In this document: one piece after another, positions 2 to 57,956 of the stretch
Position numbering within the stretch: the first letter of the stretch is position 1
Layout of the letters: every line of letters begins with the position of its first letter
From: a virus
Taxonomy: Duplodnaviria; Heunggongvirae; Uroviricota; Caudoviricetes
Reading direction: 5' to 3' (one strand)
IMG/VR virus record: IMGVR_UViG_2718218305_000006
Length of the DNA: 64,000 nt
Made by a program: the position numbers and the translations under genes
The notes under the pieces: generated by a model
What the model saw: the letters and a program-made list of their open reading frames with translations, nothing else
Database searches by the model: none
What the model was told of the DNA's origin: nothing

Positions 2-1945
2 AGTCAGGGTGAGGCAGATATTTATATTTATGACGAGATTGGTTTCTGGGGAGTTACCGCGAAGCAGTTTGTCAGCGATATGAATGCCCTGGGTGATATC
101 ACCCACATTAATCTCCATATCAATTCACCGGGTGGCGATGTCTTTGAAGGCATCGCCATTTTTAATGCCCTGAAAAATCAGGGGGCGACCATTACCGTGT
201 ATGTGGATGGCGTTGCCGCCTCGATGGCATCTGTGATTGCGATGGCCGGTGATACGGTCATTATGCCGGAAAATGCCTTCATGATGATCCATAAGCCATG
301 GGGATTCAGTGGCGGGGATGCTGAGGATATGCGCAGTTATGCCGATTTGCTGGATAAAGTCGAATCGGTACTGTTGCCAGCCTATGCGCAGAAAACCGGA
401 AAAACCACCGATGAAATTGCCGCCATGCTGGCGGATGAAACCTGGATGTCCGGTGCCGAATGTCTGGCACACGGATTTGCTGACCAGGTGACACCCGCTG
501 TTGAGGCAATGGCATGTATTCAGTCAAAACGTACAGAGGAATTTAAAAAGATGCCGGAATCCATCCGAAACATGATTACTCCGCCACGCAACAGTGCCCC
601 GCGTGATACCACAGTGACAATCCCTGCACCGGCGGTAACAGAACCATCACCGGTACCGGCAGTGTCTGATGAGGCGACCATTCGCGCCCGCGTTATGGCT
701 GAGCAGAAAGCCCGCATGTCAGGCATTAACGATCTGTTTGCCATGTTCGGTGGTCGCTATCAGACGCTTCAGGCACAGTGCGTGGCTGATCCTGACTGTT
801 CGCTGGAAATGGCCCGTGAACGTCTGCTGAATGAAATGGGCAAGGAGTCCTCGCCGACCAACAAAAATACACCGGCTCATATTTATGCCGGAAACGGCAA
901 TTTTGTGGGGGACGGGATCCGCCAGGCGATGCTGGCCCGTGCCGGATTTGAAAATGTCGAGAAGGATAACGCCTATAACGGGATGACCCTGCGTGAATGG
1001 GCTCGCATGTCACTGACGGAGCGCGGTATTGGGGTGGCCAGTTATAACCCCATGCAGATGGTCGGGCTGGCGCTGACGCACAGCACCTCTGATTTTGGCA
1101 ATATTCTGCTGGATGTGTCGAACAAGGGGCTGATCCAGGGCTGGGAGGAATCAGAAGAAACCTTCCAGAAGTGGACCCGTAAGGGACGCCTGTCAGACTT
1201 CAAAACAGCGTATCGCGTGGGGATGGGCGGTTTTGGTTCTCTGCGCCAGGTTCGTGAGGGGGCGGAGTATAAATACATCACCACCTCAGATCGCAAGGAG
1301 ACCATTGCACTGGCCACTTACGGGGAGATTTTCTCCATCACCCGCCAGGCCATTATCAATGATGATCTGAATATGCTGGTGGACGTGCCGATGAAGATGG
1401 GGCGTGCGGCGAAGGCAACGATTGGTGACCTGGTCTACAAGGTGCTGACGGATAACCCGAAACTGTCCGACGGTAAGGCGCTGTTCCATGCCGATCACAA
1501 AAATATTGCCACCGGGGGGATCTCCGTTTCCGGACTGGATGCGGCCCGTCAGATGATGCGCCTGCAGAAAGAAGGCGATCGTGCCCTGAATATCCGTCCG
1601 GCCTTTATGCTGGTACCGGTGGCACTGGAGACGGTGGCGAACCAGACCATCAAATCGGCCAGTGTGAAAGGGGCGGATGCAAACGCCGGTGTCATTAACC
1701 CTATCCAGAACTTTGCTGAGGTGATTGCAGAAGCGCGTCTTGATGCGGCAGACCCGAAAACCTGGTATCTGGCGGCGGCACAGGGCACTGACACCATTGA
1801 AGTGGCCTGGCTGGATGGTGTGGACACGCCATACATTGATCAGCAGGAAGGTTTCACCACTGACGGCATTGCCACAAAAATCCGTATTGATGCCGGAGTG
1901 GCACCACTTGACTGGCGCGGGCTGGTGCGTTCGTCGGTGGCCTGA
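2..1945 (+). CDS. Prohead protease (ClpP/S14-like) - major capsid protein fusion, 5'-partial
   Basis: Reading frame open from window start; N-terminal ClpP-like region (..GVAASMASVIAMAGD..) fused to long capsid-like C-terminal domain; typical HK97-like head gene of EHEC lambdoid prophages. Confidence 0.8.
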   Translation, partial: SQGEADIYIYDEIGFWGVTAKQFVSDMNALGDITHINLHINSPGGDVFEGIAIFNALKNQGATITVYVDGVAASMASVIAMAGDTVIMPENAFMMIHKPWGFSGGDAEDMRSYADLLDKVESVLLPAYAQKTGKTTDEIAAMLADETWMSGAECLAHGFADQVTPAVEAMACIQSKRTEEFKKMPESIRNMITPPRNSAPRDTTVTIPAPAVTEPSPVPAVSDEATIRARVMAEQKARMSGINDLFAMFGGRYQTLQAQCVADPDCSLEMARERLLNEMGKESSPTNKNTPAHIYAGNGNFVGDGIRQAMLARAGFENVEKDNAYNGMTLREWARMSLTERGIGVASYNPMQMVGLALTHSTSDFGNILLDVSNKGLIQGWEESEETFQKWTRKGRLSDFKTAYRVGMGGFGSLRQVREGAEYKYITTSDRKETIALATYGEIFSITRQAIINDDLNMLVDVPMKMGRAAKATIGDLVYKVLTDNPKLSDGKALFHADHKNIATGGISVSGLDAARQMMRLQKEGDRALNIRPAFMLVPVALETVANQTIKSASVKGADANAGVINPIQNFAEVIAEARLDAADPKTWYLAAAQGTDTIEVAWLDGVDTPYIDQQEGFTTDGIATKIRIDAGVAPLDWRGLVRSSVA

Positions 1946-2032
1946 TAACCGCGTTATCACAATCACTGCCCGAAAGGGCTTTTTTTATGCCTGAAAAACA
2001 GCCCCACAGGGGCTGTCCGGAGAAACAGCATT

Positions 2033-2359
2033 ATGGCGAAAAATTTTGTACAGGACGGTACCACCATTGAACTGGTGAATGCCGGAGATCAGACCATCCT
2101 GAGCGGTGCTGCGGTGGTGGTCGGCAGTATGGTGGCCGTGGCCATTACCGATATTCCTGCCGGTGAGGCCGGTGACGGTTTTGCCGAAGGCGTGTTCCTG
2201 CTGCCCAAACAGTCTGCTGACGACATTCAGTCCGGCGCGGTGGTTTATCTGAAGGACGGGGTTGTGCAGCTGGCTGCCGACGGTGCGGTGGCCGCGGGGG
2301 TAGCCTGGGAAAATGCTCCTGCAAACAGCGCCACTGTGGCGGTAAAAATCAATGTCTGA
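2033..2359 (+). CDS. Phage head protein, DUF2190-like (putative capsid decoration/cement protein)
   Basis: 108-aa Gly/Ala/Val-rich ORF immediately after capsid gene; resembles DUF2190 head proteins. Confidence 0.55.
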   Translation: MAKNFVQDGTTIELVNAGDQTILSGAAVVVGSMVAVAITDIPAGEAGDGFAEGVFLLPKQSADDIQSGAVVYLKDGVVQLAADGAVAAGVAWENAPANSATVAVKINV

Positions 2360-2633
2360 TCTGTTTACGCGAATGTGTTGCCGGATGGACGTGGCGACCG
2401 TTCGGATGATGGGCAAACAGGCGGAGATTAACGGCGTCGTGTACGACGTGATGCCGGAGGAAGAGTCCGCGGAGATGGGGGCGCTTTCGGGCAGCCAGTT
2501 GTCACTGGTGGTGTTTTCAGCCCGGTACCGTCCGGCCCGTCATGATGTTGTTGTGTTTGCGGGGCGCACACTGACGGTGACCCGTTATGACACGTACAAC
2601 GGTAAACCCCGGATTTTTGTCGAACAGGAATGA
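2352..2633 (+). CDS. Head-tail joining protein (FII-like)
   Basis: 93-aa ORF between head and tail genes, overlapping neighbours by a few nt; weak motif similarity to lambda FII. Confidence 0.45.
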   Translation: MSDLFTRMCCRMDVATVRMMGKQAEINGVVYDVMPEEESAEMGALSGSQLSLVVFSARYRPARHDVVVFAGRTLTVTRYDTYNGKPRIFVEQE

Positions 2634-3259
2634 GTATGGCAATAAAAGGTCTGGCGCAGGCCATGAAAAATCTGGATGCAATTGATCGCCGTGCCGTTCC
2701 CCGGGCCTCTGCCACGACACTGAACCGCGTGGCGGGGGCCATTATTGCGAAAACGGCCTCTTCAGTTGCCAGGGAGCTGGCCGTTCCCCGTCGTCTTATC
2801 CGTGCCCGCATCCGGTTAAGTCCGGCACGACCGGATAAGGTTTACGCAAAGGTTTACATCAATACCGGCAACCTGCCCGCCATCAAACTGGGGGAGGCCC
2901 GCGTTCGACTTTCCCGCAGAAAACGGAGAAAGAAAGGACAGCGTGCGGCCCTGAAAGGGGGCGGCAGTGTGCTGATTGTGGGGAAAAGACGGATCCCGGA
3001 CGCCTTTATCACCCGGCTGGCTAACGGACGCTGGCATGTGATGCAGCGTATGCCGTGGGCATCATCATCCACCGGCGCGGACAGCAAAGGGAGGCCGAAA
3101 CGCCACCGTCTGCCGATCGAAGTGGTGAAGATTACGACTGCCGGACCGCTGGCAGAAACCTTTGAACGTGAACGGGACCGGATGTACCGGGAAAAATTAC
3201 CGGCGCAGATGATGAAAGCCATGACGCATCAGTTACGCCTGGTGCTGAAAAGAAAATGA
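2630..3259 (+). CDS. Z: Minor tail protein Z (hybrid N-terminus)
   Basis: C-terminal part (..RRKRRKKGQR..GGGSV..NGRWHVMQR..) matches lambda gpZ; start ATG overlaps upstream stop (ATGA); alternative ATG at 2636. Confidence 0.75.
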   Translation: MSMAIKGLAQAMKNLDAIDRRAVPRASATTLNRVAGAIIAKTASSVARELAVPRRLIRARIRLSPARPDKVYAKVYINTGNLPAIKLGEARVRLSRRKRRKKGQRAALKGGGSVLIVGKRRIPDAFITRLANGRWHVMQRMPWASSSTGADSKGRPKRHRLPIEVVKITTAGPLAETFERERDRMYREKLPAQMMKAMTHQLRLVLKRK

Positions 3260-3271
3260 CTGGGAGGGTGT

Positions 3272-3670
3272 ATGAAACACCGTGAAATACGGGCGGCAGT
3301 TCTGTCTGCCCTGAAAGAAAATATTTCTGAGAGGGTGAGCTGGTTTGACGGTCGCCCGGTTTTTATTGATGAACAGGAACTGCCTGCTGTTGCTGTTTAC
3401 CTGACAGATGCGTCTGCTGCTGACGAGTTCGTTGATGAGGGAACCTGGGAGGCGACACTGCATATTGAGGTTTTTCTCAGGGCAAAAGAACCGGACTCGG
3501 CACTGGATATGTGGATGGAAGAAAAAATTCTTCCTGCGCTGGAGGCAGTTCCCGGGCTCAGTGCATTACTGCTGAAGATGAATCTTCAGGGGTATGACTA
3601 CCGCCGGGATGATGAGTTTATGATGTGGGGATCGGCAGATCTCCTGTGGAAAATTACCTACGAGATGTGA
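3272..3670 (+). CDS. U: Minor tail protein U
   Basis: 132 aa, lambda gpU-like (..[26 protein letters not shown]..); divergent (~50%) from the U copy at 47223. Confidence 0.85.
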
Positions 3671-3677
3671 GGACGAT

Positions 3678-4430
3678 ATGGCAACACCAAATCCCCTTGA
3701 GCCGGTAAAAGGTGCCGGTACCACTCTGTGGGTTTACAACGGCAAGGGTGATGCTTATGCAAACCCGTTGTCAGACGATGACTGGCAGCGACTGGCTAAG
3801 GTGAAGGATCTGACGCCGGGCGAGATGACGGCAGAACCCTACGATGATAACTACCTGGATGATGAAGACGCGGACTGGACCGCGACCGGGCAGGGGCAGA
3901 AGTCTGCAGGAGATACCAGTTTTACGCTGGCCTGGAAACCGGGAGAAGAAGGTCAGAAAGGGCTTATAGGCTGGTTTGAAAGCGGGGATGTGCGGGCCTA
4001 TAAAATCCGTTTCCCAAATGGCACGGTGGATGTGTTCCGTGGCTGGGTCAGCAGTATCGGTAAGGCCGTGACGGCGAAAGAAGTGATCACCCGCACGGTG
4101 AAAGTCACTAACGTGGGCAAACCTTCCGTGGCGGAAGAACGCAGCGAAATTACGCCGGCCACTGCAATTAAGGTGACACCGACATCCGGTACGGTGGCAA
4201 AAGGGAAAACAACCACCCTGACGGTTTCTTTTGAGCCGGAAAGTGCAACCGACAAGACGTTCAGAGCGGTTTCCGCCGATCCGTCGAAAGCCACCATTAG
4301 TGTGAAAGATATGACAATTACGGTAAACGGCGTGGCGACAGGTAAGGTGCAGATCCCTGTGGTGAGCGGAAATGGTCAGTTCGCCGCAGTGGCTGAAGTC
4401 ACCGTTACTGAAGCGGGCGCTGCAGGGTAA
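3678..4430 (+). CDS. V: Major tail protein V (with C-terminal Big_2-like domain)
   Basis: 250 aa, strong similarity to lambda gpV (..[35 protein letters not shown]..). Confidence 0.9.
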
Positions 4431-5201: not shown

Positions 5202-5244
5202 CAGTTATTGATGGTATCAGAGGACATTTCAGGAGGTGACCACG

Positions 5245-7890
5245 ATGGCAGGTAATTTTGCCGATCTGACAGCCGTGCTGACACTGGATTCTGCCCGTTT
5301 TTCTGAAGAGGCAGCGCGGGTAAAAAAAGAGCTGGGTGAAACCAGTGCGCTTGCTGATTTGATGTCCGGGAAAGTCAGTCAGTCTTTCAGAAAACAGGCT
5401 GATGCTGCTGAGCAGAGTCTGAGCCGACAGGCGCTGGCTGCACAAAAAGCCGGGATATCAGTCGGACAGTATAAGGCTGCCATGCGCACACTGCCCGCAC
5501 AGTTCACGGATATTGTCACTCAGCTTGCCGGTGGTCAGAATCCCTTCCTTATCATGCTGCAGCAGGGGGGGCAGATCAGCGATTCATTCGGTGGACCGCT
5601 CAGCCTGCTTACCCTGCTGAAGGAGGAACTTCTCGGGATCAGGGATGCCTCTGAATCATCAGAGGAGTCGCTGTCAGATACGGCAAATGCACTGGCTGAA
5701 AATGCCCGGAATGCCGGTGAGCTGGGACGATTTATGTCGGTGGCCCGTGTGGCGGCAGGTGGCGGGGTTGCCGTACTGGCCGCGCTTGCTGCCGCCGCCT
5801 GGCAGGCAGAGCAGGCTGACCGGGCCTTATTGCGTTCACTGACCCTGACCGGAGGGGCTGCTGCCACCACAACGGCAGAATTGTGGAAAATGGCCGGGGT
5901 GATCAGCGATGAAGCCGGTGGTGGTATCAGACAGGCGGCAGAAAATCTGGCCCGTCTGGCAGAAAGCGGGAAATATACCGCCGGGCAGCTACGGATCATG
6001 GGGGAAACCTCTCAGAGATGGCTGCAGACGGTGGGGGACGATGCCGGGAAGGTGGAAAAAGCCTTTGAAGGGATTGCAGCAGATCCGGTGAAGGCGCTGG
6101 CCTCCCTGAATCAGCAGTATAACTTCCTGAGCGTTTCCCAGTTACGCCATATTGATGAGCTTGAGCGCACGAAAGGTAAACAGGCTGCGGTGACGGAGGC
6201 GATGTCCCTGTTTGCGGATGTCATGAATGCACGTCTGGAGCAACTTGATAAAGCGGCCACGCCGGTGGAAAAAATCTGGGACGATGTTAAAACCTGGACT
6301 TCTGACGCATGGGCATGGATAGGTGATCATACACTGGGGGCACTCAGTCTGATCACTGACGTGGTGGCAGGAACCGTTGAACAGGTGAAGCTGCTGCTTG
6401 TGCAGGGGGATCTGGCGCTGGCTGAATTTATTCAGTCAGCCTGGGAAACGACAAAGAATGTGCCCGGCGTTGGTGCGTTGTTTGGTGAACTGGCAGAAGA
6501 GAACCGCGTATTTATTGAGAAAACAAAACGCGATGAACTGGCGCTGAGAAAATCCATTGCGGAACGGGATGCGCGTATACGCCAGGGGGAAATGGGGTAC
6601 ATCAACCGTTCGCGTGCAACAGGCGTCAGCAAAGGTCCGGGGCAGCAGGAAGCCGTCAGCCGTCTGGCTGAAGAGCTGACAGGTAAAAAGCATACATCAC
6701 CGAAAACGCGCTCTGCCGGGGAGAGGGAAGAGGAGCAGGCAAGAGAGGCTCTGCTTGCCCTTGAAGCTGAGCTCAGGACGCTGGAAAAACACAGCGGTGC
6801 GAATGAGAAAATCAGCCGGCAGCGCCGTGATTTATGGAAGGCGGAAAGTCAGTATGCGGTCCTGAAAGAGGCTGCCACGAAACGACAGTTATCTGAGCAG
6901 GAAAAATCCCTGCTGGCGCATAAAGACGAGACGCTGGAGTACAAACGCCAGCTGGCTGAGCTGGGCGACAAGGTTGAATACCAGAAACGCCTGAATGAGC
7001 TGGCACAGCAGGCGGTGCGGTTTGAAGAGCAGCAGAGCGCGAAGCAGGCCGCCATCAGCGCAAAAGCCCGCGGTCTCACTGACCGTCAGGCGCAGCGGGA
7101 GTCTGAAGCGCAGCGTCTTCGGGACGTGTACGGTGATAATCCGGCTGCGCTGGCGAAGGCCACATCGGCACTGAAGAACACCTGGTCTGCGGAGGAGCAG
7201 CTTCGTGGAAGCTGGCTGGCCGGGCTGAAGTCCGGCTGGGGGGAGTGGGCGGAAAGTGCGACGGACAGTTTTTCGCAGGTTAAAAGTGCTGCCACGCAGA
7301 CCTTTGACGGTATTGCACAGAATATGGCGGCGATGCTGACCGGTGCAGAGGCAGACTGGCGGGGATTCACCCGTTCGGTGCTGTCCATGATGACAGAAAT
7401 CCTGCTTAAACAGGCCATGGTGGGCATTGTCGGGCGTATCGGCAGCGCCATTGGCGGTGCTTTCGGTGGTGGTGCATCTGCTTCCTCGGGGACGGCCATT
7501 GAGGCTGCGGCGGCGAACTTCCATTTCGCGACCGGAGGATTTACGGGGACGGGCGGCAAATATGAGCCTGCGGGGATAGTTCACCGCGGGGAGTTTGTTT
7601 TCACGAAAGAGGCAACCAGCCGGATAGGTGTGGGGAATCTTTACCGTCTGATGCGCGGCTATGCGGAAGGTGGTTATGTGGGTGGTGCCGGAAGTCCGGC
7701 GCAGATGCGGCGGGCGGAAGGTATTAATTTTAATCAGAACAATCACGTGGTGATTCAGAACGACGGCACCAACGGACAGGCGGGGCCGCAGCTGATGAAG
7801 GCGGTGTATGACATGGCCCGCAAGGGGGCGCAGGATGAGCTCCGGCTGCAGTTGCGTGATGGCGGTATGTTATCGGGGAGCGGGCGATGA
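5245..7890 (+). CDS. H: Tail tape measure protein H
   Basis: ATG at 5245 with AGGAGG 8 nt upstream (track start 5236 is a GTG inside the SD); C-terminal two-thirds and last residues (..LRDGGMLSGSGR) match lambda gpH; stop overlaps M start (ATGA). Confidence 0.9.
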   Translation: MAGNFADLTAVLTLDSARFSEEAARVKKELGETSALADLMSGKVSQSFRKQADAAEQSLSRQALAAQKAGISVGQYKAAMRTLPAQFTDIVTQLAGGQNPFLIMLQQGGQISDSFGGPLSLLTLLKEELLGIRDASESSEESLSDTANALAENARNAGELGRFMSVARVAAGGGVAVLAALAAAAWQAEQADRALLRSLTLTGGAAATTTAELWKMAGVISDEAGGGIRQAAENLARLAESGKYTAGQLRIMGETSQRWLQTVGDDAGKVEKAFEGIAADPVKALASLNQQYNFLSVSQLRHIDELERTKGKQAAVTEAMSLFADVMNARLEQLDKAATPVEKIWDDVKTWTSDAWAWIGDHTLGALSLITDVVAGTVEQVKLLLVQGDLALAEFIQSAWETTKNVPGVGALFGELAEENRVFIEKTKRDELALRKSIAERDARIRQGEMGYINRSRATGVSKGPGQQEAVSRLAEELTGKKHTSPKTRSAGEREEEQAREALLALEAELRTLEKHSGANEKISRQRRDLWKAESQYAVLKEAATKRQLSEQEKSLLAHKDETLEYKRQLAELGDKVEYQKRLNELAQQAVRFEEQQSAKQAAISAKARGLTDRQAQRESEAQRLRDVYGDNPAALAKATSALKNTWSAEEQLRGSWLAGLKSGWGEWAESATDSFSQVKSAATQTFDGIAQNMAAMLTGAEADWRGFTRSVLSMMTEILLKQAMVGIVGRIGSAIGGAFGGGASASSGTAIEAAAANFHFATGGFTGTGGKYEPAGIVHRGEFVFTKEATSRIGVGNLYRLMRGYAEGGYVGGAGSPAQMRRAEGINFNQNNHVVIQNDGTNGQAGPQLMKAVYDMARKGAQDELRLQLRDGGMLSGSGR

Positions 7891-8216
7891 AAACATTTCG
7901 CTGGAAAGTGAAGCCGGATATGGAGGTGAACTCGCAGCCGTCGGTGCGTGAAGTGCGTTTTGGTGACGGGTACTCACAGCGTATGGCGGCAGGGCTGAAT
8001 GCTGACCTGAAAACATACCGTGTGACGCTTTCCGTGACCCGGGAGGAGGCCCGGCATCTGGAAGCGTTCCTGGCAGAGCACGGAGGCTGGAAGGCATTTT
8101 TGTGGAAGCCACCCTATGCATACCGGCAGATAAAGGTGACCTGTGCCGGGTGGTCTGCGCGGGTCGGGATGTTGCGCGTTGAGTTCAGCGCGGAGTTTAA
8201 GCAGGTGGTGAACTGA
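7887..8216 (+). CDS. M: Minor tail protein M
   Basis: 109 aa MKTFRWKVKPDMEVNSQPSVREVRFGDGYSQR.. lambda gpM-like. Confidence 0.9.
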   Translation: MKTFRWKVKPDMEVNSQPSVREVRFGDGYSQRMAAGLNADLKTYRVTLSVTREEARHLEAFLAEHGGWKAFLWKPPYAYRQIKVTCAGWSARVGMLRVEFSAEFKQVVN

Positions 8217-44450: not shown

Positions 44451-44459
44451 GGGATGTTT

Positions 44460-44792: not shown

Positions 44793-44847
44793 CCTGACCC
44801 TTCATCACTAAAGGCCGCCTGTGCGGCTTTTTTTACGGGATTTTTTT

Positions 44848-45873: not shown

Positions 45874-45914
45874 TCATGGCCCTTCGGGGCCATTGTTTTT
45901 CTGTGGAGGAGTCC

Positions 45915-46313
45915 ATGACGAAAGATGAACTGATTGCCCGTCTCCGCTCGCTGGGTGAACAACTGAACCGTGATGTCAGCCTGACGGGGACGAAAGAAGA
46001 ACTGGCGCTCCGTGTGGCAGAGCTGGAAGAGGAGCTTGATGACACGGATGAAACTGCCGGTCAGGACACCCCTCTCAGCCGGGAAAATGTGCTGACCGGA
46101 CATGAAAATGAGGTGGGATCAGCGCAGCCGGATACCGTGATTCTGGATACGTCTGAACTGGTCACGGTCGTGGCACTGGTGAAGCTGCATACTGATGCAC
46201 TTCACGTCACGCGGGATGAACCTGTGGCATTTGTGCTGCCGGGAACGGCGTTTCGTGTCTCTGCCGGTGTGGCAGCCGAAATGACAGAGCGCGGCCTGGC
46301 CAGAATGCAATAA
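45915..46313 (+). CDS. FI: DNA packaging protein FI
   Basis: MTKDELIARLRSLGEQLNRDVSL.. lambda gpFI; GGAGGAG SD. Confidence 0.9.
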   Translation: MTKDELIARLRSLGEQLNRDVSLTGTKEELALRVAELEEELDDTDETAGQDTPLSRENVLTGHENEVGSAQPDTVILDTSELVTVVALVKLHTDALHVTRDEPVAFVLPGTAFRVSAGVAAEMTERGLARMQ

Positions 46314-46324
46314 CGGGAGGCGCT

Positions 46325-46678
46325 GTGGCTGATTTCGATAACCTGTTCGATGCTGCCATTGCCCGCGCCGATGAAACGATACGCGGGTACATGGGAACGT
46401 CAGCCACCATGACATCCGGTGAGCGGTCCGGCGCAGTAATACGTGGTGTTTTTGATGACCCTGAAAATATCAGCTATGCCGGACAGGGCGTGCGCGTTGA
46501 AGGCTCCAGCCCGTCCCTGTTTGTCCGGACTGATGATGTGCGGCAACTGCGGCGTGGTGACACGCTGACCATTAACGGCGAGATGTTCTGGGTGGACCGT
46601 GTTTCTCCGGATGACGGAGGGAGTTGTTATCTCTGGCTCAACCGTGGGCAACCACCGGCAGTTAACCGGCGACGATAA
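46325..46678 (+). CDS. FII: Head-tail joining protein FII
   Basis: MADFDNLFDAAIARADETIRGYMG.. lambda gpFII; GTG start. Confidence 0.9.
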   Translation: MADFDNLFDAAIARADETIRGYMGTSATMTSGERSGAVIRGVFDDPENISYAGQGVRVEGSSPSLFVRTDDVRQLRRGDTLTINGEMFWVDRVSPDDGGSCYLWLNRGQPPAVNRRR

Positions 46679-46692
46679 ACGCAGGGTGAATT

Positions 46693-47226
46693 ATGGCGAT
46701 AAAAGGGCTTGATCAGGCGATTGAAAATCTGAGCCGGGTTCGTAAAAACGCCATTCCGGCGGCTTCAGCAATGGCCATTAACCGCGTGGCCACAACGGCG
46801 ATTAATCAGTCTTCATCACAGGTTGCCCGGGAGACAAAGGTACGCCGGAAACTGGTAAAGGAACGGTCCAGACTGAAACGGGCCACGGTCAGAAATCCGA
46901 ATGCCAGAATTATCGTTAAACGCGGTGATCTCCCTGTGATTAAGCTGGGGATCAGGATGCTGGGCCGTCGTCCGGACAGCATACTTAAAGCTGGTCAGCA
47001 TCGGTATCAGCGGGCATTTATCCAGCGATTAAAAAATGGTCGCTGGCATGTCATGCAGCGTGTGGCCGGGAAAAACCGTTACCCCATTGATGTGGTGAAA
47101 ATCCCGATGGCGGCCCCACTGAAACAGGCGTTTGATGAGAATATTGACCGTATCCGGCGTGAACGTCTGCCCGGAGAACTGGCATACGCGCTGAAACAAC
47201 AACTTAGGATTGCGATAAAACGATGA
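46693..47226 (+). CDS. Z: Minor tail protein Z
   Basis: 177 aa lambda gpZ-like along full length. Confidence 0.9.
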   Translation: MAIKGLDQAIENLSRVRKNAIPAASAMAINRVATTAINQSSSQVARETKVRRKLVKERSRLKRATVRNPNARIIVKRGDLPVIKLGIRMLGRRPDSILKAGQHRYQRAFIQRLKNGRWHVMQRVAGKNRYPIDVVKIPMAAPLKQAFDENIDRIRRERLPGELAYALKQQLRIAIKR

Positions 47227-47618
47227 AACATACTGATATCCGTGCGGCAGTGCTGGATGCACTGGAGCTGCATGAACACGGGGCGACGCTGTTTGATGGT
47301 CGCCCCGTTGTTTTTGACGAAGAGGATTTTCCGGCCGTCGCGGTTTATCTGACGGATGCAGAGTATACCGGTGAAGAGCTGGATGCAGATACCTGGCGGG
47401 CCACACTGCATATTGAGGTGTTTTTACCGGCACAGGTACCGGATTCGGAGCTTGATCAGTGGATGGAAAGCCGGATTTATCCGGCGGTGACTGCGATCCC
47501 GGCACTGGCAGACCTGATTACGACGATGGTTACGCAGGGCTATGAGTATCGTCGTGATGACGATATGGCGTTATGGAGTTCTGCGGATCTGACTTATTCC
47601 ATTACATACGAGATGTGA
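47223..47618 (+). CDS. U: Minor tail protein U
   Basis: 131 aa lambda gpU-like. Confidence 0.9.
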
Positions 47619-47625
47619 GGACGAT

Positions 47626-48378
47626 ATGGCAACACCAAATCCCCTTGAGCCGGTAAAAGGTGCCGGTACCACTCTGTGGGTTTACAACGGCAAGGGTGAT
47701 GCTTATGCAAACCCGTTGTCAGACGATGACTGGCAGCGACTGGCTAAGGTGAAGGATCTGACGCCGGGCGAGATGACGGCAGAACCCTACGATGATAACT
47801 ACCTGGATGATGAAGACGCGGACTGGACCGCGACCGGGCAGGGGCAGAAGTCTGCAGGAGATACCAGTTTTACGCTGGCCTGGAAACCGGGAGAAGAAGG
47901 TCAGAAAGGGCTTATAGGCTGGTTTGAAAGCGGGGATGTGCGGGCCTATAAAATCCGTTTCCCAAATGGCACGGTGGATGTGTTCCGTGGCTGGGTCAGC
48001 AGTATCGGTAAGGCCGTGACGGCGAAAGAAGTGATCACCCGCACGGTGAAAGTCACTAACGTGGGCAAACCTTCCGTGGCGGAAGAACGCAGCGAAATTA
48101 CGCCGGCCACTGCAATTAAGGTGACACCGACATCCGGTACGGTGGCAAAAGGGAAAACAACCACCCTGACTGTTTCTTTTGAGCCGGAAAGTGCAACCGA
48201 CAAGACGTTCAGAGCGGTTTCCGCCGATCCGTCGAAAGCCACCATTAGTGTGAAAGATATGACAATTACGGTAAACGGCGTGGCGACAGGTAAGGTGCAG
48301 ATCCCTGTGGTGAGCGGAAATGGTCAGTTCGCCGCAGTGGCTGAAGTCACCGTTACTGAAGCGGGCGCTGCAGGGTAA
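47626..48378 (+). CDS. V: Major tail protein V
   Basis: Identical protein to copy at 3678. Confidence 0.9.
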
Positions 48379-48391
48379 ACGGAGGTAATAC

Positions 48392-48814
48392 ATGTTTCTG
48401 AAAACAGAACAATTTGAATATAACGGTGTGTCCGTCACGCTTTCCGAATTGTCTGCGCTGCAGCGGTTTGATTATATAAAGTTTGTTTCAGACGCAGAAC
48501 AACAGGAGACAACGAAGCATGATGTCGTGCACATTAACCAGCGATATCTGGAAACGGCATCCCTGCTTGTGGCGATGTCGCTATGGCATTCCCATTCCCT
48601 CAAAGGCACTCTGGCCTCTCCGGAGACAGAGATGCAGCAGATCCGCCGTGAAGTGATGCTGGGATGGCCTGCTGATGCACTGAATCAGGCAACGAACCGG
48701 GTGCTTTATCTTTCAGGTATGCTGGATAACCGGCACGATGCCGATCCTGAACAAACCGGTAAAGCAGAAGCGACTGAGTCGGTAACATCAAAAAAGCATT
48801 CGAAGGCGAGCTGA
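48392..48814 (+). CDS. G: Tail assembly chaperone G
   Basis: 140 aa, few substitutions versus copy at 4444. Confidence 0.85.
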   Translation: MFLKTEQFEYNGVSVTLSELSALQRFDYIKFVSDAEQQETTKHDVVHINQRYLETASLLVAMSLWHSHSLKGTLASPETEMQQIRREVMLGWPADALNQATNRVLYLSGMLDNRHDADPEQTGKAEATESVTSKKHSKAS

Positions 48815-49254
48815 ACTTTGTCCTGAAACTGGCGCGAGAGATGGGGAGACCCGACTGGCGCGCCATGCTTGCCGGGATGACATCCACCGAATATGCCGAC
48901 TGGCGACGTTTTTACTGCACGCATTATTTTCAGGATACCCAACTGGACGCTCATTTTTCCGGGCTGATGTACGCCGTACTCAGCCTGTTTTTTGGCGATC
49001 CGGATATGCATCCGGCGGATTTCAGTCTGCTTGCTCCAGCGTGTGAGGAAGAGCAGACGGAGATGCCGGACGAGGAAGAAATGCTGATGCAGAAAGCGAC
49101 AGGAGTTGCCGGAGGCGTCCGGTTCGGAGGGGACGGAGGGCGCGATATTTCACCTTCTGCGGATGTGGTGGATGTCAGCGAGGATGATGTTGCATTAATG
49201 ATGGCTTCAGCGGGGATTTCCGGAGGTGTGAGATATGTCCCAGCCAGCGGGTGA
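48790..49254 (+). CDS. T: T segment of G-T fusion (programmed -1 frameshift at A_AAA_AAG 48790-48796)
   Basis: Same in-phase heptamer as copy 1; the out-of-phase GGGAAAG of copy 1 is GGTAAAG here; C-terminus differs from copy 1 and overlaps H start. Confidence 0.75.
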   Translation, partial: KKAFEGELNFVLKLAREMGRPDWRAMLAGMTSTEYADWRRFYCTHYFQDTQLDAHFSGLMYAVLSLFFGDPDMHPADFSLLAPACEEEQTEMPDEEEMLMQKATGVAGGVRFGGDGGRDISPSADVVDVSEDDVALMMASAGISGGVRYVPASG

Positions 49255-51907
49255 TCTGGTTATTGATTTGAGTCTGGATGCGGCCCGGTTTGATGAACAG
49301 ATGGCCCGGGTACGCCGTCATTTTTCCAGTCTGGAGGCGGATGCCAGAAAAACCGCCAGTACTGTTGAACAGGGGCTGAGCCGACAGGCGCTGGCGGCAC
49401 AAAAAGCCGGGATATCAGTCGGACAGTATAAGGCTGCCATGCGCACACTGCCCGCACAGTTCACGGATATTGTCACTCAGCTTGCCGGTGGTCAGAATCC
49501 CTTCCTTATCATGCTGCAGCAGGGGGGGCAGATCAGCGATTCATTCGGTGGACCGCTCAGCCTGCTTACCCTGCTGAAGGAGGAACTTCTCGGGATCAGG
49601 GATGCCTCTGAATCATCAGAGGAGTCGCTGTCAGATACGGCAAATGCACTGGCTGAAAATGCCCGGAATGCCGGTGAGCTGGGACGATTTATGTCGGTGG
49701 CCCGTGTGGCGGCAGGTGGCGGGGTTGCCGTACTGGCCGCGCTTGCTGCCGCCGCCTGGCAGGCAGAGCAGGCTGACCGGGCCTTATTGCGTTCACTGAT
49801 CCTGACCGGAGGGGCGGCTGCCACCACAACGGCAGAATTGTGGAAAATGGCCGGGGTGATCAGCGATGAAGCCGGTGGTGGTATCAGACAGGCGGCAGAA
49901 AATCTGGCCCGTCTGGCAGAAAGCGGGAAATATACCGCCGGGCAGCTACGGATCATGGGGGAAACCTCTCAGAGATGGCTGCAGACGGTGGGGGACGATG
50001 CCGGGAAGGTGGAAAAAGCCTTTGAAGGGATTGCAGCAGATCCGGTGAAGGCGCTGGCCTCCCTGAATCAGCAGTATAACTTCCTGAGCGTTTCCCAGTT
50101 ACGCCATATTGATGAGCTTGAGCGCACGAAAGGTAAACAGGTTGCGGTGACGGAGGCGATGTCCCTGTTTGCGGATGTCATGAATGCACGTCTGGAGCAA
50201 CTTGATAAAGCGGCCACGCCGGTGGAAAAAATCTGGGACGATGTTAAAACCTGGACTTCTGACGCATGGGCATGGATAGGTGATCATACACTGGGGGCAC
50301 TCAGTCTGATCACTGACGTGGTGGCCGGAACCGTTGAACAAGTGAAGCTGCTGCTTGTGCAGGGGGATCTGGCGCTGGCTGAATTTATTCAGTCAGCCTG
50401 GGAAACGACAAAGAATGTGCCCGGCGTTGGTGCGTTGTTTGGTGAACTGGCAGAAGAGAACCGCGTATTTATTGAGAAAACAAAACGCGATGAACTGGCG
50501 CTGAGAAAATCCATTGCGGAACGGGATGCGCGTATACGCCAGGGGGAAATGGGGTACATCAACCGCTCGCGTGCAACAGGCGTCAGCAAAGGTCCGGGGC
50601 AGCAGGAAGCCGTCAGCCGTCTGGCTGAAGAGCTGACAGGTAAAAAGCATACATCACCGAAAACGCGCTCTGCCGGGGAGAGGGAAGAGGAGCAGGCAAG
50701 AGAGGCTCTGCTTGCCCTTGAAGCTGAGCTCAGGACGCTGGAAAAACACAGCGGTGCGAATGAGAAAATCAGCCGGCAGCGCCGTGATTTATGGAAGGCG
50801 GAAAGTCAGTATGCGGTCCTGAAAGAGGCTGCCACGAAACGACAGTTATCTGAGCAGGAAAAATCCCTGCTGGCGCATAAAGACGAGACGCTGGAGTACA
50901 AACGCCAGCTGGCTGAGCTGGGCGACAAGGTTGAATACCAGAAACGCCTGAATGAGCTGGCACAGCAGGCGGTGCGGTTTGAAGAGCAGCAGAGCGCGAA
51001 GCAGGCCGCCATCAGCGCAAAAGCCCGCGGTCTCACTGACCGTCAGGCGCAGCGGGAGTCTGAAGCGCAGCGTCTTCGGGACGTGTACGGTGATAATCCG
51101 GCTGCGCTGGCGAAGGCCACATCGGCACTGAAGAACACCAGGTCTGCGGAGGAGCAGCTTCGTGGAAGCTGGATGGCCGGGCTGAAGTCCGGCTGGGGCG
51201 AGTGGGCGGAAAGTGCGACGGACAGTTTTTCGCAGGTTAAAAGTGCTGCCACGCAGACCTTTGACGGTATTGCACAGAATATGGCGGCGATGCTGACCGG
51301 TGCAGAGGCAGACTGGCGGGGATTCACCCGTTCGGTGCTGTCCATGATGACAGAAATCCTGCTTAAACAGGCCATGGTGGGCATTGTCGGGCGTATCGGC
51401 AGCGCCATTGGCGGTGCTTTCGGTGGTGGTGCATCTGCTTCCTCGGGGACGGCCATTCAGGCTGCGGCGGCGAACTTCCATTTTGCGACCGGCGGATTTA
51501 CGGGAACCGGCGGCAAATATGAGCCTGCGGGGATAGTTCACCGCGGGGAGTTTGTTTTCACGAAAGAGGCAACCAGCCGGATAGGTGTGGGGAATCTTTA
51601 CCGTCTGATGCGTGGCTATGCGGAAGGGGGGTATGTGGGTGGTGCCGGAAGTCCGGCGCAGATGCGGCGGGCGGAAGGTATTAATTTTAATCAGAACAAT
51701 CACGTGGTGATTCAGAACGACGGCACCAACGGACAGGCGGGGCCGCAGCTGATGAAGGCGGTGTATGACATGGCCCGCAAGGGGGCGCAGGATGAGATTC
51801 AGGCGCAGTTGCGTGATGCGGTATGTTATCGGGGAGCGGGCGATGAAAACATTTCGCTGGAAAGTGAAGCCGGATATGGAGGTGAACTCGCAGCCGTCGG
51901 TGCGTGA
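49235..51907 (+). CDS. H: Tail tape measure protein H (lambda-like N-terminus; 3' end frameshifted relative to copy 1)
   Basis: Starts MSQPAGDLVIDLSLDAARFDEQMARVRRHF (lambda-like); single-base difference near 51818 changes the last 11 codons and extends the ORF 65 nt into M. Confidence 0.85.
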   Translation: MSQPAGDLVIDLSLDAARFDEQMARVRRHFSSLEADARKTASTVEQGLSRQALAAQKAGISVGQYKAAMRTLPAQFTDIVTQLAGGQNPFLIMLQQGGQISDSFGGPLSLLTLLKEELLGIRDASESSEESLSDTANALAENARNAGELGRFMSVARVAAGGGVAVLAALAAAAWQAEQADRALLRSLILTGGAAATTTAELWKMAGVISDEAGGGIRQAAENLARLAESGKYTAGQLRIMGETSQRWLQTVGDDAGKVEKAFEGIAADPVKALASLNQQYNFLSVSQLRHIDELERTKGKQVAVTEAMSLFADVMNARLEQLDKAATPVEKIWDDVKTWTSDAWAWIGDHTLGALSLITDVVAGTVEQVKLLLVQGDLALAEFIQSAWETTKNVPGVGALFGELAEENRVFIEKTKRDELALRKSIAERDARIRQGEMGYINRSRATGVSKGPGQQEAVSRLAEELTGKKHTSPKTRSAGEREEEQAREALLALEAELRTLEKHSGANEKISRQRRDLWKAESQYAVLKEAATKRQLSEQEKSLLAHKDETLEYKRQLAELGDKVEYQKRLNELAQQAVRFEEQQSAKQAAISAKARGLTDRQAQRESEAQRLRDVYGDNPAALAKATSALKNTRSAEEQLRGSWMAGLKSGWGEWAESATDSFSQVKSAATQTFDGIAQNMAAMLTGAEADWRGFTRSVLSMMTEILLKQAMVGIVGRIGSAIGGAFGGGASASSGTAIQAAAANFHFATGGFTGTGGKYEPAGIVHRGEFVFTKEATSRIGVGNLYRLMRGYAEGGYVGGAGSPAQMRRAEGINFNQNNHVVIQNDGTNGQAGPQLMKAVYDMARKGAQDEIQAQLRDAVCYRGAGDENISLESEAGYGGELAAVGA

Positions 51908-52172
51908 AGTGCGTTTTGGTGACGGGTACTCACAGCGTATGGCGGCAGGGCTGAATGCTGACCTGAAAACATACCGTGTGACGCTTTCCGTGACCCGGGA
52001 GGAGGCCCGGCATCTGGAAGCGTTCCTGGCAGAGCACGGAGGCTGGAAGGCATTTTTGTGGAAGCCACCCTATGCATACCGGCAGATAAAGGTGACCTGT
52101 GCCGCCTGGTCATCACGGGTTCGCATGCTGCGGGTTGAATTCAGTGCCGAGTTTAAGCAGGTGGTGAACTGA
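51843..52172 (+). CDS. M: Minor tail protein M
   Basis: ATG at 51843 (MKTFRWK..); track ORF 51765 is an upstream extension. Confidence 0.9.
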   Translation: MKTFRWKVKPDMEVNSQPSVREVRFGDGYSQRMAAGLNADLKTYRVTLSVTREEARHLEAFLAEHGGWKAFLWKPPYAYRQIKVTCAAWSSRVRMLRVEFSAEFKQVVN

Positions 52173-52870
52173 TGCAGGATATTCACGAAGAAAGCCTGAA
52201 CGAGTCGGTTAAATCAGAGCAGTCACCGCGGGTGGTGCTCTGGGAAATTGACCTGACGGTGCAGGGCGGTGAGCGGTATTTTTTCTGTAATGAGCTGAAT
52301 GAAAAAGGGGAGGCGGTCACCTGGCAGGGGCGGCAATATCAGGTATACCCGATTGACGGCAGCGGTTTTGAGATGAACGGGAAGGGCAGCAGTGCCAGAC
52401 CGTCGCTGACAGTGTCCAATCTTTTCGGCCTTGTCACCGGGATGGCGGAGGATTTGCAGAGCCTGGTGGGTGCCACGGTGGTCCGCCGCCGGGTGTATGC
52501 GCGTTTTCTGGATGCGGTGAATTTTGTGGCAGGCAATCCTGAGGCAGACCCGGAGCAGGAGCTGACGGACCGGTGGGTGGTGGAGCAGATGTCATCGCTG
52601 ACGGCCATGACGGCCTCGTTTGTGCTGGCGACACCGACGGAGACGGACGGAGCGCTGTTTCCCGGTCGCATCATGCTGGCGAACACCTGTATGTGGGATT
52701 ACCGGGGAGATGAATGCGGGTATAACGGTCCTGCGGTGGCGGATGAGTTCGATAAACCCACCACGGATATCCGGAAGGACAGATGCAGTAAATGCATGCG
52801 CGGGTGTGAGATGCGCGGCATGGTGGCTAATTTTGGCGGTTTCCTTTCCATTAACAAACTTTCGCAGTAA
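52172..52870 (+). CDS. L: Minor tail protein L
   Basis: 232 aa, near-identical to copy at 8216. Confidence 0.9.
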   Translation: MQDIHEESLNESVKSEQSPRVVLWEIDLTVQGGERYFFCNELNEKGEAVTWQGRQYQVYPIDGSGFEMNGKGSSARPSLTVSNLFGLVTGMAEDLQSLVGATVVRRRVYARFLDAVNFVAGNPEADPEQELTDRWVVEQMSSLTAMTASFVLATPTETDGALFPGRIMLANTCMWDYRGDECGYNGPAVADEFDKPTTDIRKDRCSKCMRGCEMRGMVANFGGFLSINKLSQ

Positions 52871-52875
52871 ATCCA

Positions 52876-53619
52876 ATGACACAGACAGAATCAGCGATTC
52901 TGGCGCATGCCCGGCGGTGTGCGCCTGCGGAGTCGTGCGGCTTCGTGGTGAGAACGCCGGAGGGGGAGCGGTATATCCCTTGTGTGAATATCTCTGCAGA
53001 GCCGGAGGCGTATTTTCGTATTGCACCGGAAGACTGGCTGTGGGCAGAGATGCAGGGGGAGATTGTGGCACTGGTCCACAGTCATCCCGGTGGTCTGCCC
53101 TGGCTGAGCGAGGCGGACCGGCGGCTGCAGATAAAGAGTGCCCTGCCCTGGTGGCTGGTCTGCCGGGGGGAAATTCACAAATTCCGCTGTGTGCCGCACC
53201 TGACCGGGCGTCGTTTTGAGCACGGGGTGACGGACTGTTACACCCTGTTCCGGGATGCATACCATCTGGCGGGGATAACGCTGCCGGATTTTGTGCGTGA
53301 GGATGACTGGTGGCGCAACGGTCAGAACCTTTACCTGGACAATATGGCGGTCACCGGCTTTTACCGGGTGCCCCTGTCCTCTGCACAGGCGGGCGATATC
53401 CTGCTGTGCTGCTTTGGCGCATCGGTGGCCAATCATGCCGCCATTTACTGCGGCAACGGTGAACTGCTTCACCATCTGCCTGAACAACTGAGTAAACGGG
53501 AGAGGTATTCTGAAAAATGGCAACGACGAACGCATTCTGTCTGGCGTCACCGCCACTGGCACGCATCTGCCTTCACGGGGATTTGCAACGATTTGGCCGC
53601 CGCCTCAGCCTGTACGTGA
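52876..53619 (+). CDS. K: Tail assembly protein K
   Basis: 247 aa. Confidence 0.9.
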   Translation: MTQTESAILAHARRCAPAESCGFVVRTPEGERYIPCVNISAEPEAYFRIAPEDWLWAEMQGEIVALVHSHPGGLPWLSEADRRLQIKSALPWWLVCRGEIHKFRCVPHLTGRRFEHGVTDCYTLFRDAYHLAGITLPDFVREDDWWRNGQNLYLDNMAVTGFYRVPLSSAQAGDILLCCFGASVANHAAIYCGNGELLHHLPEQLSKRERYSEKWQRRTHSVWRHRHWHASAFTGICNDLAAASACT

Positions 53620-54194
53620 ACACGGCAGCGGAAGCCATCCGTGCCCTGTCGCTGCAGATGCCGGGATTCCGCCGTCAGATGAACGAAGGCTGGTACCAGA
53701 TACGTATTCGCGGTGAGGACACGGCACCGGAGGCGGTGTACGCCCGTCTTCACGAACCTCTGGGTGAGGGGGCGGTCATCCATATTGTGCCGCGACTGGC
53801 CGGAGCCGGAAAGGGCGGACTGCAGATTGTGCTGGGGGCGGCAGCCATCGTGGGCTCTTTCTTCACCGCCGGCGCAACGATGGCGTTGTGGGGCGCAGCC
53901 CTGAGTGCCGGAGGGCTGACTGCCACCACGATGCTGTTCTCACTGGGTGCCAGCATGATACTGGGCGGTGTGGCCCAGATGCTGGCACCGAAGGCAAAAA
54001 CACCGGAGTACAGGGCGACGGATAACGGTAAACAGAACACGTATTTTTCGTCACTGGATAACATGATTGCCCAGGGGAACCCGATGCCGGTGCCTTATGG
54101 TGAAATGCTGGTTGGTTCACGACGGATATCCCAGGACATCAGCACCCGTGATGAGGGCGGAGACGGGAAAGTGGTGGTTATCGGGCGGGGATGA
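53517..54194 (+). CDS. I: Tail assembly protein I
   Basis: 225 aa. Confidence 0.85.
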   Translation: MATTNAFCLASPPLARICLHGDLQRFGRRLSLYVNTAAEAIRALSLQMPGFRRQMNEGWYQIRIRGEDTAPEAVYARLHEPLGEGAVIHIVPRLAGAGKGGLQIVLGAAAIVGSFFTAGATMALWGAALSAGGLTATTMLFSLGASMILGGVAQMLAPKAKTPEYRATDNGKQNTYFSSLDNMIAQGNPMPVPYGEMLVGSRRISQDISTRDEGGDGKVVVIGRG

Positions 54195-54434
54195 AAATAA
54201 AAAAATCCCGCAGAGTTAGCGGAGCTGCGGGAGAGAACGATGAAGATTAACGTTATGGAGTTATTTTTCAGGCATCAAAAAAGTAATGCAGCGTCATTAT
54301 TGCGGCTACAGGCAATTGCCGGAAATGTGAAGAGTTTCAGAAATTTTATTCCGTCATGACACAGGCACCCTCCGGGGTGCCTGTTGTTTTCTGGCATAAA
54401 CAGATTCAGACATCAGACAGGAGAGGGGGACAGA

Positions 54435-57400
54435 GTGGGTAAAGGGGGCGGCAAGGGGCACACGCCGGTAGAGGCAAAGGACAATCTTAAGTCCACGCAG
54501 ATGATGAGCGTGATTGATGCCATTGGTGAAGGGCCGATTGAAGGTCCGGTGAAGGGGCTGCAGAGTATCCTGGTGAACAAAACCCCGCTGACGGACACGG
54601 ACGGTAATCCTGTGATACATGGTGTGACAGCGGTCTGGCGCGCCGGGGAGCAGGAGCAGACACCACCTGAAGGCTTTGAGTCCTCCGGGGCGGAAACCGC
54701 ACTGGGCGTGGAAGTGACGAAGGCAAAGCCGGTGACGCGCACCATTACGTCCGCGAACATTGACCGCCTGCGGGTCACCTTCGGGGTGCAGTCACTGTTG
54801 GAGACCACCTCAAAGGGCGACCGTAATCACTCTTCTGTCCGACTGCTGATTCAGTTGCAGCGTAACGGTAACTGGGTGACGGAAAAGGATGTCACCATTA
54901 ACGGCAAGACCACCTCGCAGTTTCTGGCGTCGGTGATTCTGGATAATCTGCCTGAGCGGCCCTTTAACATCCGGATGGTCCGGGAGACAGCGGACAGCAC
55001 CCCGGACCAGCTGCAGAATAAGACGCTCTGGTCGTCATACACCGAAATCATCGATGTGAAACAGTGCTACCCGAACACGGCGATTGTGGGGCTGCAGGTG
55101 GATGCGGAGCAGTTTGGCGGTCAGCAGATGACGGTGAACTACCATATCCGCGGTCGCATCATCCAGGTACCGTCAAACTATGACCCGGAAAAACGCACGT
55201 ACAGCGGCATCTGGGACGGCAGCCTGAAACCGGCATACAGCAACAACCCTGCCTGGTGCCTGTGGGACATGCTGACCCACCCGCGCTACGGAATGGGAAA
55301 ACGCCTGGGGGCGGCGGATGTGGACAAGTGGGCGCTGTATGCCATTGCGCAGTACTGCGACCAGACGGTCCCGGATGGTTTCGGGGGCACAGAGCCGCGG
55401 ATGACTTTCAATGCGTACCTGTCACAACAGCGTAAGGCGTGGGACGTTCTCAGTGATTTCTGCTCGGCGATGCGCTGTATGCCGGTATGGAACGGGCAGA
55501 CGCTGACGTTTGTGCAGGACCGTCCGTCAGATGTGGTGTGGCCCTACACCAGCAGTGATGTGGTGGTGGATGATAACGGCGTGGGGTTTCGCTACAGCTT
55601 CAGCGCCCTGAAGGACCGCCACACGGCGGTGGAGGTGAATTACACCGACCCGCAGAACGGCTGGCAGACCTCCACGGAACTGGTGGAAGACCCGGAAGCC
55701 ATACTGCGCTACGGACGCAACCTGCTGAAGATGGATGCGTTCGGCTGCACCAGTCGCGGTCAGGCCCACCGTGCCGGGCTGTGGGTGATAAAGACCGGAC
55801 TGCTGGAAACGCAGACGGTGGATTTCACGCTCGGGTCACAGGGGCTGCGTCACACACCCGGTGACATTATTGAAATCTGTGATAACGACTATGCCGGGAC
55901 CATGACCGGCGGACGTATCCTGTCCATCGATGCCGCCAGCCGCACCCTGACACTGGACCGTGAGGTGACCCTGCCGGAGACCGGTGCCGCCACGGTGAAC
56001 CTGATTAACGGCAGCGGTAAGCCGGTGAGCGTGGCCATCACTGCACACCCCGCGCCGGACCGGATACAGGTCAGCACCCTGCCTGATGGCGTGGAGACAT
56101 ACGGTGTGTGGGGGCTCTCCCTGCCGTCACTGCGCCGTCGCCTGTTCCGCTGTGTCTCCGTCCGGGAAAACACGGACGGCACCTTTGCCATCACGGCGGT
56201 GCAGCACGTACCGGAAAAAGAAGCCATCGTGGATAACGGGGCGCACTTTGACGGCGACCAGAGCGGCACCCTGAACAGCGTCATCCCTCCGGCAGTGCAG
56301 CACCTGACGGTGGAGGTGAGTGCAGCTGACAGCCAGTATCTGGCGCAGGCGAAATGGGACACGCCGCGGGTGGTGAAGGGCGTGCGCTTCAGTCTGCGCC
56401 TGACCAGTGGAAGCGGTCAGGACAGCCGTCTGGTGACCACCGCCATCACTGCGGATACAGAGCATCGTTTCAGTGGTCTGCCGCTCGGGGAATACACCCT
56501 GACAGTCAGGGCAATTAACAGTTATGGCCAGCAGGGGGAACCGGCCATCACCACCTTCCGGATTAACGCGCCAGCAAAACCCGCCACCATTGAACTGACG
56601 CCGGGCTATTTTCAGATAACAGCGGTCCCGCGTCTTGCGGTGTATGACCCGACGGTACAGTTTGAGTTCTGGTTTTCGGAGACAAAAATCGCAGATACAT
56701 CTCAGGTGGAAACCTCTGCCCGTTATCTGGGGACCGGCAGTCAGTGGAGTGTATCCGGCCCGCACATTAAGCCCGGGAAGGATTTCTGGTTTTACGTGCG
56801 CAGCGTCAACCTGGTGGGGAAATCTGCTTTTGTGGAAGCCAGTGGCCGGGCCAGCAATGATGCAGAAGGGTATCTGGGGCTGTTTCGGGAAAAAATAGGA
56901 AAACTGCATCTGGCTCAGGGGCTGTGGGAGCTGATAGACAACAGCCAGCTTGCGGATGAGATGGCGGAGATGAAGACCTCCATCACCGAAACCCGCAATG
57001 AAATCACACAGACGGTCAGTAAAACGCTGGAGGATCAGAGCGCCACCATACAGCAGATACAGCGCGTGCAGAAGGACACAAATGATGACCTTGCTGCACT
57101 TTACATGCTGAAGGTACAGAAAACAAAAAATGGCATACCCTATGTTGCCGGTATTGGAGCGGGGATTGAGGATACTGATGGCCAGCCCCTGAGCAACATA
57201 CTGCTGCTGGCTGACCGTATCGCGATGATAAATCCGGAGAGCGGCAACAGCACGCCGTTATTTGTGGCGCAGGGGAATCAGCTGTTCATGAACGACGTGT
57301 TCCTGAAGCGACTGTTTGCGGTGAGTATCACGTCATCCGGCAACCCCCCGACGTTTTCCCTGACGCCGGAGGGCAGGCTGACCGCAAGAAATGCTGATAT

Positions 57401-57914: not shown

Positions 57915-57932
57915 ATTTTATAACCCAGAACG

Positions 57933-57956
57933 GGCGTCAGAAATGACGCCTTTTTT
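57933..57956 (+). terminator. Rho-independent terminator after J (copy 2)
   Basis: Same hairpin as 13979-14002. Confidence 0.55.

Follow-up and report, generated by a model that had tools for sequence, protein, structure and literature searches.

A single-base deletion at the 3′ end of tape-measure gene H in a defective lambdoid prophage and its probable import on a short recombination tract

Results

The H-M junction of prophage B

The 64,000-nt stretch of IMG/VR record IMGVR_UViG_2718218305_000006 analyzed here (the window) holds two tandem lambdoid prophages, A and B. Their tail modules are ~96.6% identical over roughly 11.6 kb (3653-5189 paired with 47601-49137, and 5405-15501 with 49362-59455). 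The subject of this work is the 3′ end of gene H of prophage B, which encodes a lambda-type tail tape-measure protein and lacks one base that is present in the prophage A copy (copy 1). The features of the two H-M junctions, taken in part from the list of open reading frames (ORFs), are as follows.

49235..51907, + strand: gene H of prophage B, lambda-type tail tape-measure protein, 890 aa (ORF list, Pfam, Z887 annotation, PDB match)
51817..51818, + strand: site of the 1-nt deletion, T51817-G51818, GGCGG to GCGG; T-G-G in copy 1 and in all other alleles checked
51818..51907, + strand: out-of-frame H tail, 29 codons AVCYRGAGDENISLESEAGYGGELAAVGA plus TGA, replacing GGMLSGSGR
51843..51907, + strand: 65-nt overlap of H and M made by the deletion; the canonical overlap is the 4-nt ATGA
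51843..52172, + strand: gene M of prophage B, distal tail protein, 109 aa, intact (Pfam Phage_min_tail, E=6e-38)
5236..7890, + strand: gene H of prophage A, the internal reference, with the canonical C terminus and the ATGA overlap with M
7887..8216, + strand: gene M of prophage A

Positions 7852..7869 of prophage A read TTGCGTGATGGCGGTATG, and H ends with ..LRDGGMLSGSGR. This full-length protein terminates in ..QLRDGGMLSGSGR, and its TGA (7888-7890) overlaps the M ATG (7887-7889) as ATGA. Prophage B reads ..CGTGATGCGGTATG.. compared to CGTGATGGCGGTATG in copy 1, so that 51818 is a lone G in place of the GG of copy 1. The H frame is altered from codon 862 on, 29 unrelated residues take the place of the last 9 (GGMLSGSGR), and the protein ends with ..LRDAVCYRGAGDENISLESEAGYGGELAAVGA before the stop. 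When the H copies (5405-8300 and 49362-52260) were aligned with MAFFT, 49 differences were found, and the deletion is the sole internal indel among them. The original prediction had described these two readings, the changed H C terminus, and the 65-nt overlap with M, all of which are borne out by re-reading the sequence and by the alignment. It placed the missing base near 51818, and 51818 is the exact position. Its description of the site as a homopolymer does not hold, as the base was lost from the GG dinucleotide in GGCGG. A micro-mosaic lies just upstream of the deletion at 51797-51804, where prophage B encodes DEIQAQL, as lambda does, versus DELRLQL in copy 1 and in Escherichia coli O157:H7 strain Z887. 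The IQAQ version in this context is common to only 2 complete genomes.

The gene names H and M were also given correctly in the original prediction, judging from the Pfam hits and from the RefSeq annotation of the near-identical Z887 locus. The H protein contains TMP_2 (PF06791, E=4.6e-46) and Tape_meas_lam_C (PF09718, E=2.2e-20) domains, and the ORFs, the Z887 annotation, and the Phage_min_tail match of M place H between G/T and M-L-K-I-J in the tail operon. A phmmer search of PDB sequences matched the C-terminal 129 alignable residues of H to lambda gpH 724-852 (E=6e-60). The segment GPQLMKAVYDMARKGAQDEIQAQLRD aligned with lambda 819-844 in 8iyk_H and 9e7m_Ha, and a helix homologous to lambda 818-842 is present. 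The canonical end, DGG-hydrophobic-hydrophobic-SG..R with an ATGA stop/start, is absent. This noncanonical end in an otherwise typical family member identifies the gene as a frameshifted allele of the gpH family.

Rarity of the deletion allele

Of 5,426 complete E. coli genomes, 749 gave hits to a 60-nt query spanning the site, with 1,513 places hit in all, and none of the matches was exact. Among the matches listed, the hits span 61 nt, meaning that the extra G is present. The deletion was found in none of the 44 phage records that hold the segment and in none of 10 loci that encode an identical M protein; all are wild type at the site. The M protein sequence of prophage B is itself widespread elsewhere. 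Over 51727-52293, this one base is all that separates strain 2013C-4830 from the window. Comparison with other strains had been proposed in the original prediction as a check, and it gave the extra G in the 749 complete genomes and 44 phage records, and the deletion in the contig and the three draft assemblies described below. As judged from these sequences, the deletion allele is rare and derived.

The deletion in other assemblies

A 42-mer spanning the deletion, TTGCGTGATGCGGTATGTTATCGGGGAGCGGGCGATGAAAAC, was used for exact scans. It is present in the IMG/VR prophage contig IMGVR_UViG_2718218305_000005 (L003), and exact scans of genome contigs and metagenome contigs gave no match. An exact look-up of the 890-aa H protein returned no record, and a protein search with the last 150 aa of H returned short fragments only, none covering the new tail. 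A protein search with a 51-aa query centered on the new tail identified a 45-aa ORF, P0121 (MARKGAQDEIQAQLRDAVCYRGAGDENISLESEAGYGGELAAVGA). The contigs that encode P0121 are short and belong to three NCBI drafts (GCA_014442055.1, GCA_039687395.1, and GCA_014441675.1; L004-L006), all with the deleted sequence. Counting L003 and the three drafts, four further assemblies carry the deletion on the same haplotype. The drafts share one single-nucleotide polymorphism (SNP) that is lacking in both L003 and the window, which shows that they are strains different from either. The window has no isolated single-base indel relative to its nearest relatives, O157:H7 strains Z885 and Z887, over ~29 kb (17.65 kb and 11.5 kb), so the window assembly is not noisy. 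These sequence comparisons indicate that the deletion is very probably a genuine mutation and not a sequencing error.

The same G is missing in L018 (GCA_003015365.1) along with 27 isolated single-base deletions and 3 single-base insertions in 8.3 kb, counted outside one diverged stretch, and the H gene of this contig is shredded. A true error-driven case thus looks unlike the window. P0042, considered as an independent recurrence of the deletion on another allele, was set aside as assembly noise because its contig, L018, is riddled with single-base deletions. In P0052, P0055, P0062, and P0106 the H end is also frameshifted, but at positions other than 51818, so they are uninformative for this site.

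The deletion lies on a probable recombination tract

51470..53510, + strand: 2,041-bp tract identical to L003 including the deletion; H from ~codon 746 to its end, all of M, all of L, and K to ~codon 211

The window differs from L003 at many positions up to 51469, at none from 51470 to 53510, and at many again afterward. Compared to Z887, the window is nearly identical from 40000 to 51483, with complete identity over 50044-51483, and a block of differences then extends to ~53500. Identity to L003 from 51470 and identity to Z887 up to 51483 place the left crossover within 51470-51483. Beyond the tract, identity between L003 and the window is only about 96-97%, and the tract flanks match Z887. 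L004 keeps following L003, not the window, beyond 53510, indicating that the three drafts carry the L003-type prophage and not the recombinant found in the window. No match to the recombinant crossover sequence (51455-51510) came up in IMG/VR. The tract allele is otherwise found in non-O157 prophages (2013C-4830 and 2012C-4227), and the backbone is the widespread O157 type with wild-type H. Because the deletion falls within 2,041 bp that are identical to a different prophage lineage, it is taken to have been imported by recombination. The parsimonious reading of the sequences is that an L003-type prophage donated the ~2-kb patch with its lesion to prophage B, an Sp11-like element (see below). 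A second mosaic patch relative to Z887 is found at 56500-57500 inside gene J, with ~70 mismatches and paired indels. This pattern suggests another recombination tract in the host-range region.

Prophage B was already defective

48392..48814, + strand: chaperone gene G of prophage B, intact (ORF list, Z887 annotation)
48841..49254, + strand: tail assembly chaperone gene T of prophage B, intact, upstream of H
17062..17613, − strand: truncated integrase at the prophage B left end, a 182-aa C-terminal catalytic remnant only (Pfam)
17595..18839, − strand: truncated RecE/ExoVIII at the prophage B left end (Pfam)

Positions 40000-51483 of the window are nearly identical to Z887, with 0 indels and about 1-2 mismatches. 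In RefSeq, the Z887 locus has a complete lambda-like set running from terminase to J, Lom, a tail fiber, three DUF1076 proteins, and a truncated ydfJ, and its H allele is annotated as intact, 870 aa long, with the ATGA overlap with M. In the early region, positions 16349-34000 differ from Z885 by 3 substitutions and 0 indels over 17,652 bp (99.98% identity). RefSeq marks the integrase and recE genes of Z885, which is identical there apart from the 3 mismatches, as partial in the same way. The truncated integrase and recE show that prophage B was already defective. The remaining morphogenesis genes of prophage B are all intact according to the ORF list and the Z887 comparison.

Prophage Sp11 of O157:H7 Sakai has a lambda-type morphogenesis region, a disrupted Int, and a disrupted ExoVIII system; it is described as non-excisable, lies in tandem with Sp12, and has every morphogenesis gene listed as conserved (Asadulghani et al. 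2009, PMC2669165). Frameshift mutations are reported as a usual class of defect in the Sakai prophages, morphogenesis genes included (PMC2669165). Prophage B matches an Sp11-like, integrase-defective prophage of O157:H7-type E. coli, the Sp11 label being assigned by features alone.

Several other features of the two prophages were recorded. An A_AAA_AAG slippery motif is found near the end of gene G in both prophages (~48789-48795 and ~4842-4848), where the canonical programmed −1 frameshift between G and T is expected. At ~16349/16350, between the prophage A tail-fiber genes and the prophage B left end, the window is without a 1,417-bp segment of Z885 (L017:2353-3769) that bears the type III effector gene nleC. 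A 616-aa DUF1737/SASA/DUF6645 esterase-like ORF downstream of the Q region (32540-34390) is uninterrupted; the Z885 copy is a RefSeq pseudogene with an internal stop, and one of the three mismatches to Z885 (32918) falls inside this gene. At the right end of prophage B (60040-64000), three effector genes of the DUF1076 (NleG-like) kind precede a DinI-like gene and, at 62717, a 5′-truncated ydfJ that marks the prophage-chromosome boundary.

Predicted consequences for H and M

Residue D861 of prophage B H aligns with lambda gpH D844 in the phmmer comparison with PDB sequences; the frameshift therefore replaces the equivalents of lambda 845-853, GGLFSGGGR. Residues 818-849 of lambda gpH are ordered in structures determined by cryo-electron microscopy (cryo-EM), and 818-842 form a three-helix coiled coil on the gpI trimer that plugs the tail tip (PMC10721106, PMC12617516, PMC11101478). 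The coiled-coil part belongs to the C-terminal cleavage fragment gpHC (PMC12617516), and the last four residues, 850-853, do not appear in the structures (PMC10721106, PMC12617516). The deletion leaves the coiled-coil helix untouched, and five of the replaced residues correspond to positions that are ordered in lambda next to the gpI plug. Each mutant H chain would place 20 additional residues inside the closed lumen. The terminal GG[LMVI][FL]SG... is found in 68 of 72 representative homologue C termini, and the other four are frameshift or fusion derivatives.

An ATGA junction is the usual arrangement for translational coupling. Gene M of prophage B keeps a GGGGAG Shine-Dalgarno-like sequence 6 nt upstream of its ATG.

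Interruption of H is common where the same M allele occurs. The H ORF is uninterrupted in only 1 of 10 sampled prophages (L007-L016) that encode the identical M protein. Among the nine interrupted H genes, some assemblies look like noisy long-read assemblies, and two genomes from the Centers for Disease Control and Prevention (CP027325 and CP013029) have the same H lesions as each other. For 2013C-4830, the RefSeq annotation records a frameshifted H. The H gene of L003 has a G insertion at L003:3033 (window 50570; CGCGGTG versus CGCGTG) that splits it into ORFs 1655..3091 and 2976..4370.

Discussion

We consider it highly probable that prophage B carries a heritable 1-bp deletion at the 3′ end of H, imported on a ~2-kb tract into an Sp11-like defective prophage, and that it is a decay lesion. 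The 1-bp deletion would have been present in an L003-type lambdoid prophage lineage that occurs in several independently sequenced strains. Homologous recombination would then have copied 51470..53510, with the deletion, into prophage B, so that the deletion was not born there. The last 9 residues of H are exchanged for 29 unrelated ones, just past the helix whose coiled coil rests on the gpI plug. Anchoring of the H C terminus in the tail tip is probably impaired, and the change from ATGA to a 65-nt overlap would abolish H-to-M translational coupling. The result would be one more decay lesion in a prophage no longer able to excise by itself.

The original prediction left open the choice between a real frameshift and a homopolymer sequencing error. 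The second option supposes that sequencing or assembly dropped a G in the G+C-rich GGCGG and that H is actually intact. Single-base G/C deletions at this very site do occur in public assemblies (L018, GCA_003015365.1, has dozens of such errors), the deletion is found in 0 of the 749 complete genomes, and the site is read from an assembly. The ~29 kb free of any other isolated indel relative to the nearest relatives, the dinucleotide nature of the site, and the identical deletion on an identical 2-kb haplotype in four other assemblies, three of them set apart by a SNP, speak against this explanation and make it very improbable. Of the two options, the real frameshift is thus the one that gained support, and an error at a homopolymer is unsupported at a site that is not one. 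Programmed recoding, in which ribosomes shift back near 51818 so that the normal C terminus is still made, has a precedent one gene upstream, where the tail cluster uses programmed frameshifting at the G-T site (A_AAA_AAG near 48790). The sequence CGT GAT GCG GTA is without a slippery heptamer, no X_XXY_YYZ is found at 51812-51825, and the two-frame arrangement occurs in none of the 749 genomes and none of the 44 phages that hold the segment, which shows that it is not a conserved feature. A programmed frameshift at 51818 was rejected on these grounds, and we regard it as practically inconceivable.

Given a real mutation, the lambda structures and the conservation of the terminal motif lead us to lean toward impaired H function. 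A deletion that is real yet neutral or tolerated is a less probable but serious alternative. The longer-tailed H would still measure and anchor the tail, M would be made from its own ribosome-binding site, and the tail module could still serve, for instance when co-resident prophages package or rescue with it. In favor of this, the coiled-coil helix (lambda 818-842) and all that precedes it are unaffected, the structures do not resolve lambda residues 850-853 (PMC10721106, PMC12617516), GGGGAG is still present 6 nt before the M ATG, the allele persists in a minimum of 5 assemblies and has entered a second prophage backbone, and the other morphogenesis genes of prophage B are all intact. Set against this are the terminal GG-hydrophobic-hydrophobic-SG motif, which 68 of 72 representative homologues retain even where their alleles have diverged, the five replaced residues that are ordered beside the gpI plug in the closed lumen (PMC12617516), and the L003 gene, in which the same allele sits in an H with a second frameshift. 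The interruption of H in nine of the ten sampled prophages with the same M allele indicates that H decay is the norm, which also argues against tolerance. It is doubtful that the allele is tolerated or even favored in the stronger sense that the tail-swapped H still anchors on the gpI plug and builds working tails, with H/M uncoupling being costless. If it were so, the allele would be a natural mutant showing that the ordered lambda gpH residues 845-849 are dispensable, and its persistence and its spread by inter-prophage recombination would be explained.

Several points weigh against an imported, damaging lesion. The case for a real mutation is built on assembled sequences, and the sequencing platforms of the supporting assemblies are inferred only. 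L003 may come from a strain closely related to that of the window, yet the three drafts differ by a SNP. The direction of recombination is a matter of parsimony. Only 9 of 870 residues are replaced and the coiled-coil helix is spared; the last four lambda gpH residues are disordered in the structures and M has its own ribosome-binding site. A neutral change would fit equally well with an allele that has persisted across several strains and come through its transfer. The original prediction also described H as a usually essential gene. This carries little weight here because the truncated integrase and recE had already made prophage B defective.

An imported decay lesion has modest implications. 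The H gene of prophage B is to be annotated as a frameshifted allele or pseudogene and not silently corrected as an error, and beyond correct annotation the finding has little importance. Its sole mildly instructive point is that a lesion moved between prophages on a short recombination tract. The long near-repeats formed by the A and B tail modules are substrates for inter-prophage recombination of the kind seen here, and the transfer of lesions among lambdoid prophages that are related or reside together matters for predictions of which O157 prophages can still make tails. The allele is also a natural variant for probing the contact between the gpH C terminus and the gpI plug in the recent lambda cryo-EM structures.

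Both the gene and this type of defective prophage are known, and the deletion is an ordinary decay lesion and not a new kind of feature. The L003-type allele is identical to the window over 51470-53510, deletion included, and the L003-type assemblies match at 0 or 1 mismatch; L003 itself differs from the window in the additional +1 G insertion in H. Prophage B resembles Sakai Sp11 in its lambda-like morphogenesis module, disrupted integrase, disrupted ExoVIII-type recombinase, and tandem second lambdoid prophage, but it bears an extra lesion at the end of H, whereas the Sp11 morphogenesis genes are conserved. It shares with lambda gpH (853 aa; PDB 8IYK, 8IYL, 8K35, and 9E7M) the Pfam domains, the gene order G-T-H-M-L-K-I-J, and the gpI-contacting helix. 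Unlike lambda, it has 29 unrelated residues in place of GGLFSGGGR (845-853), and the H stop codon has moved off the M start.

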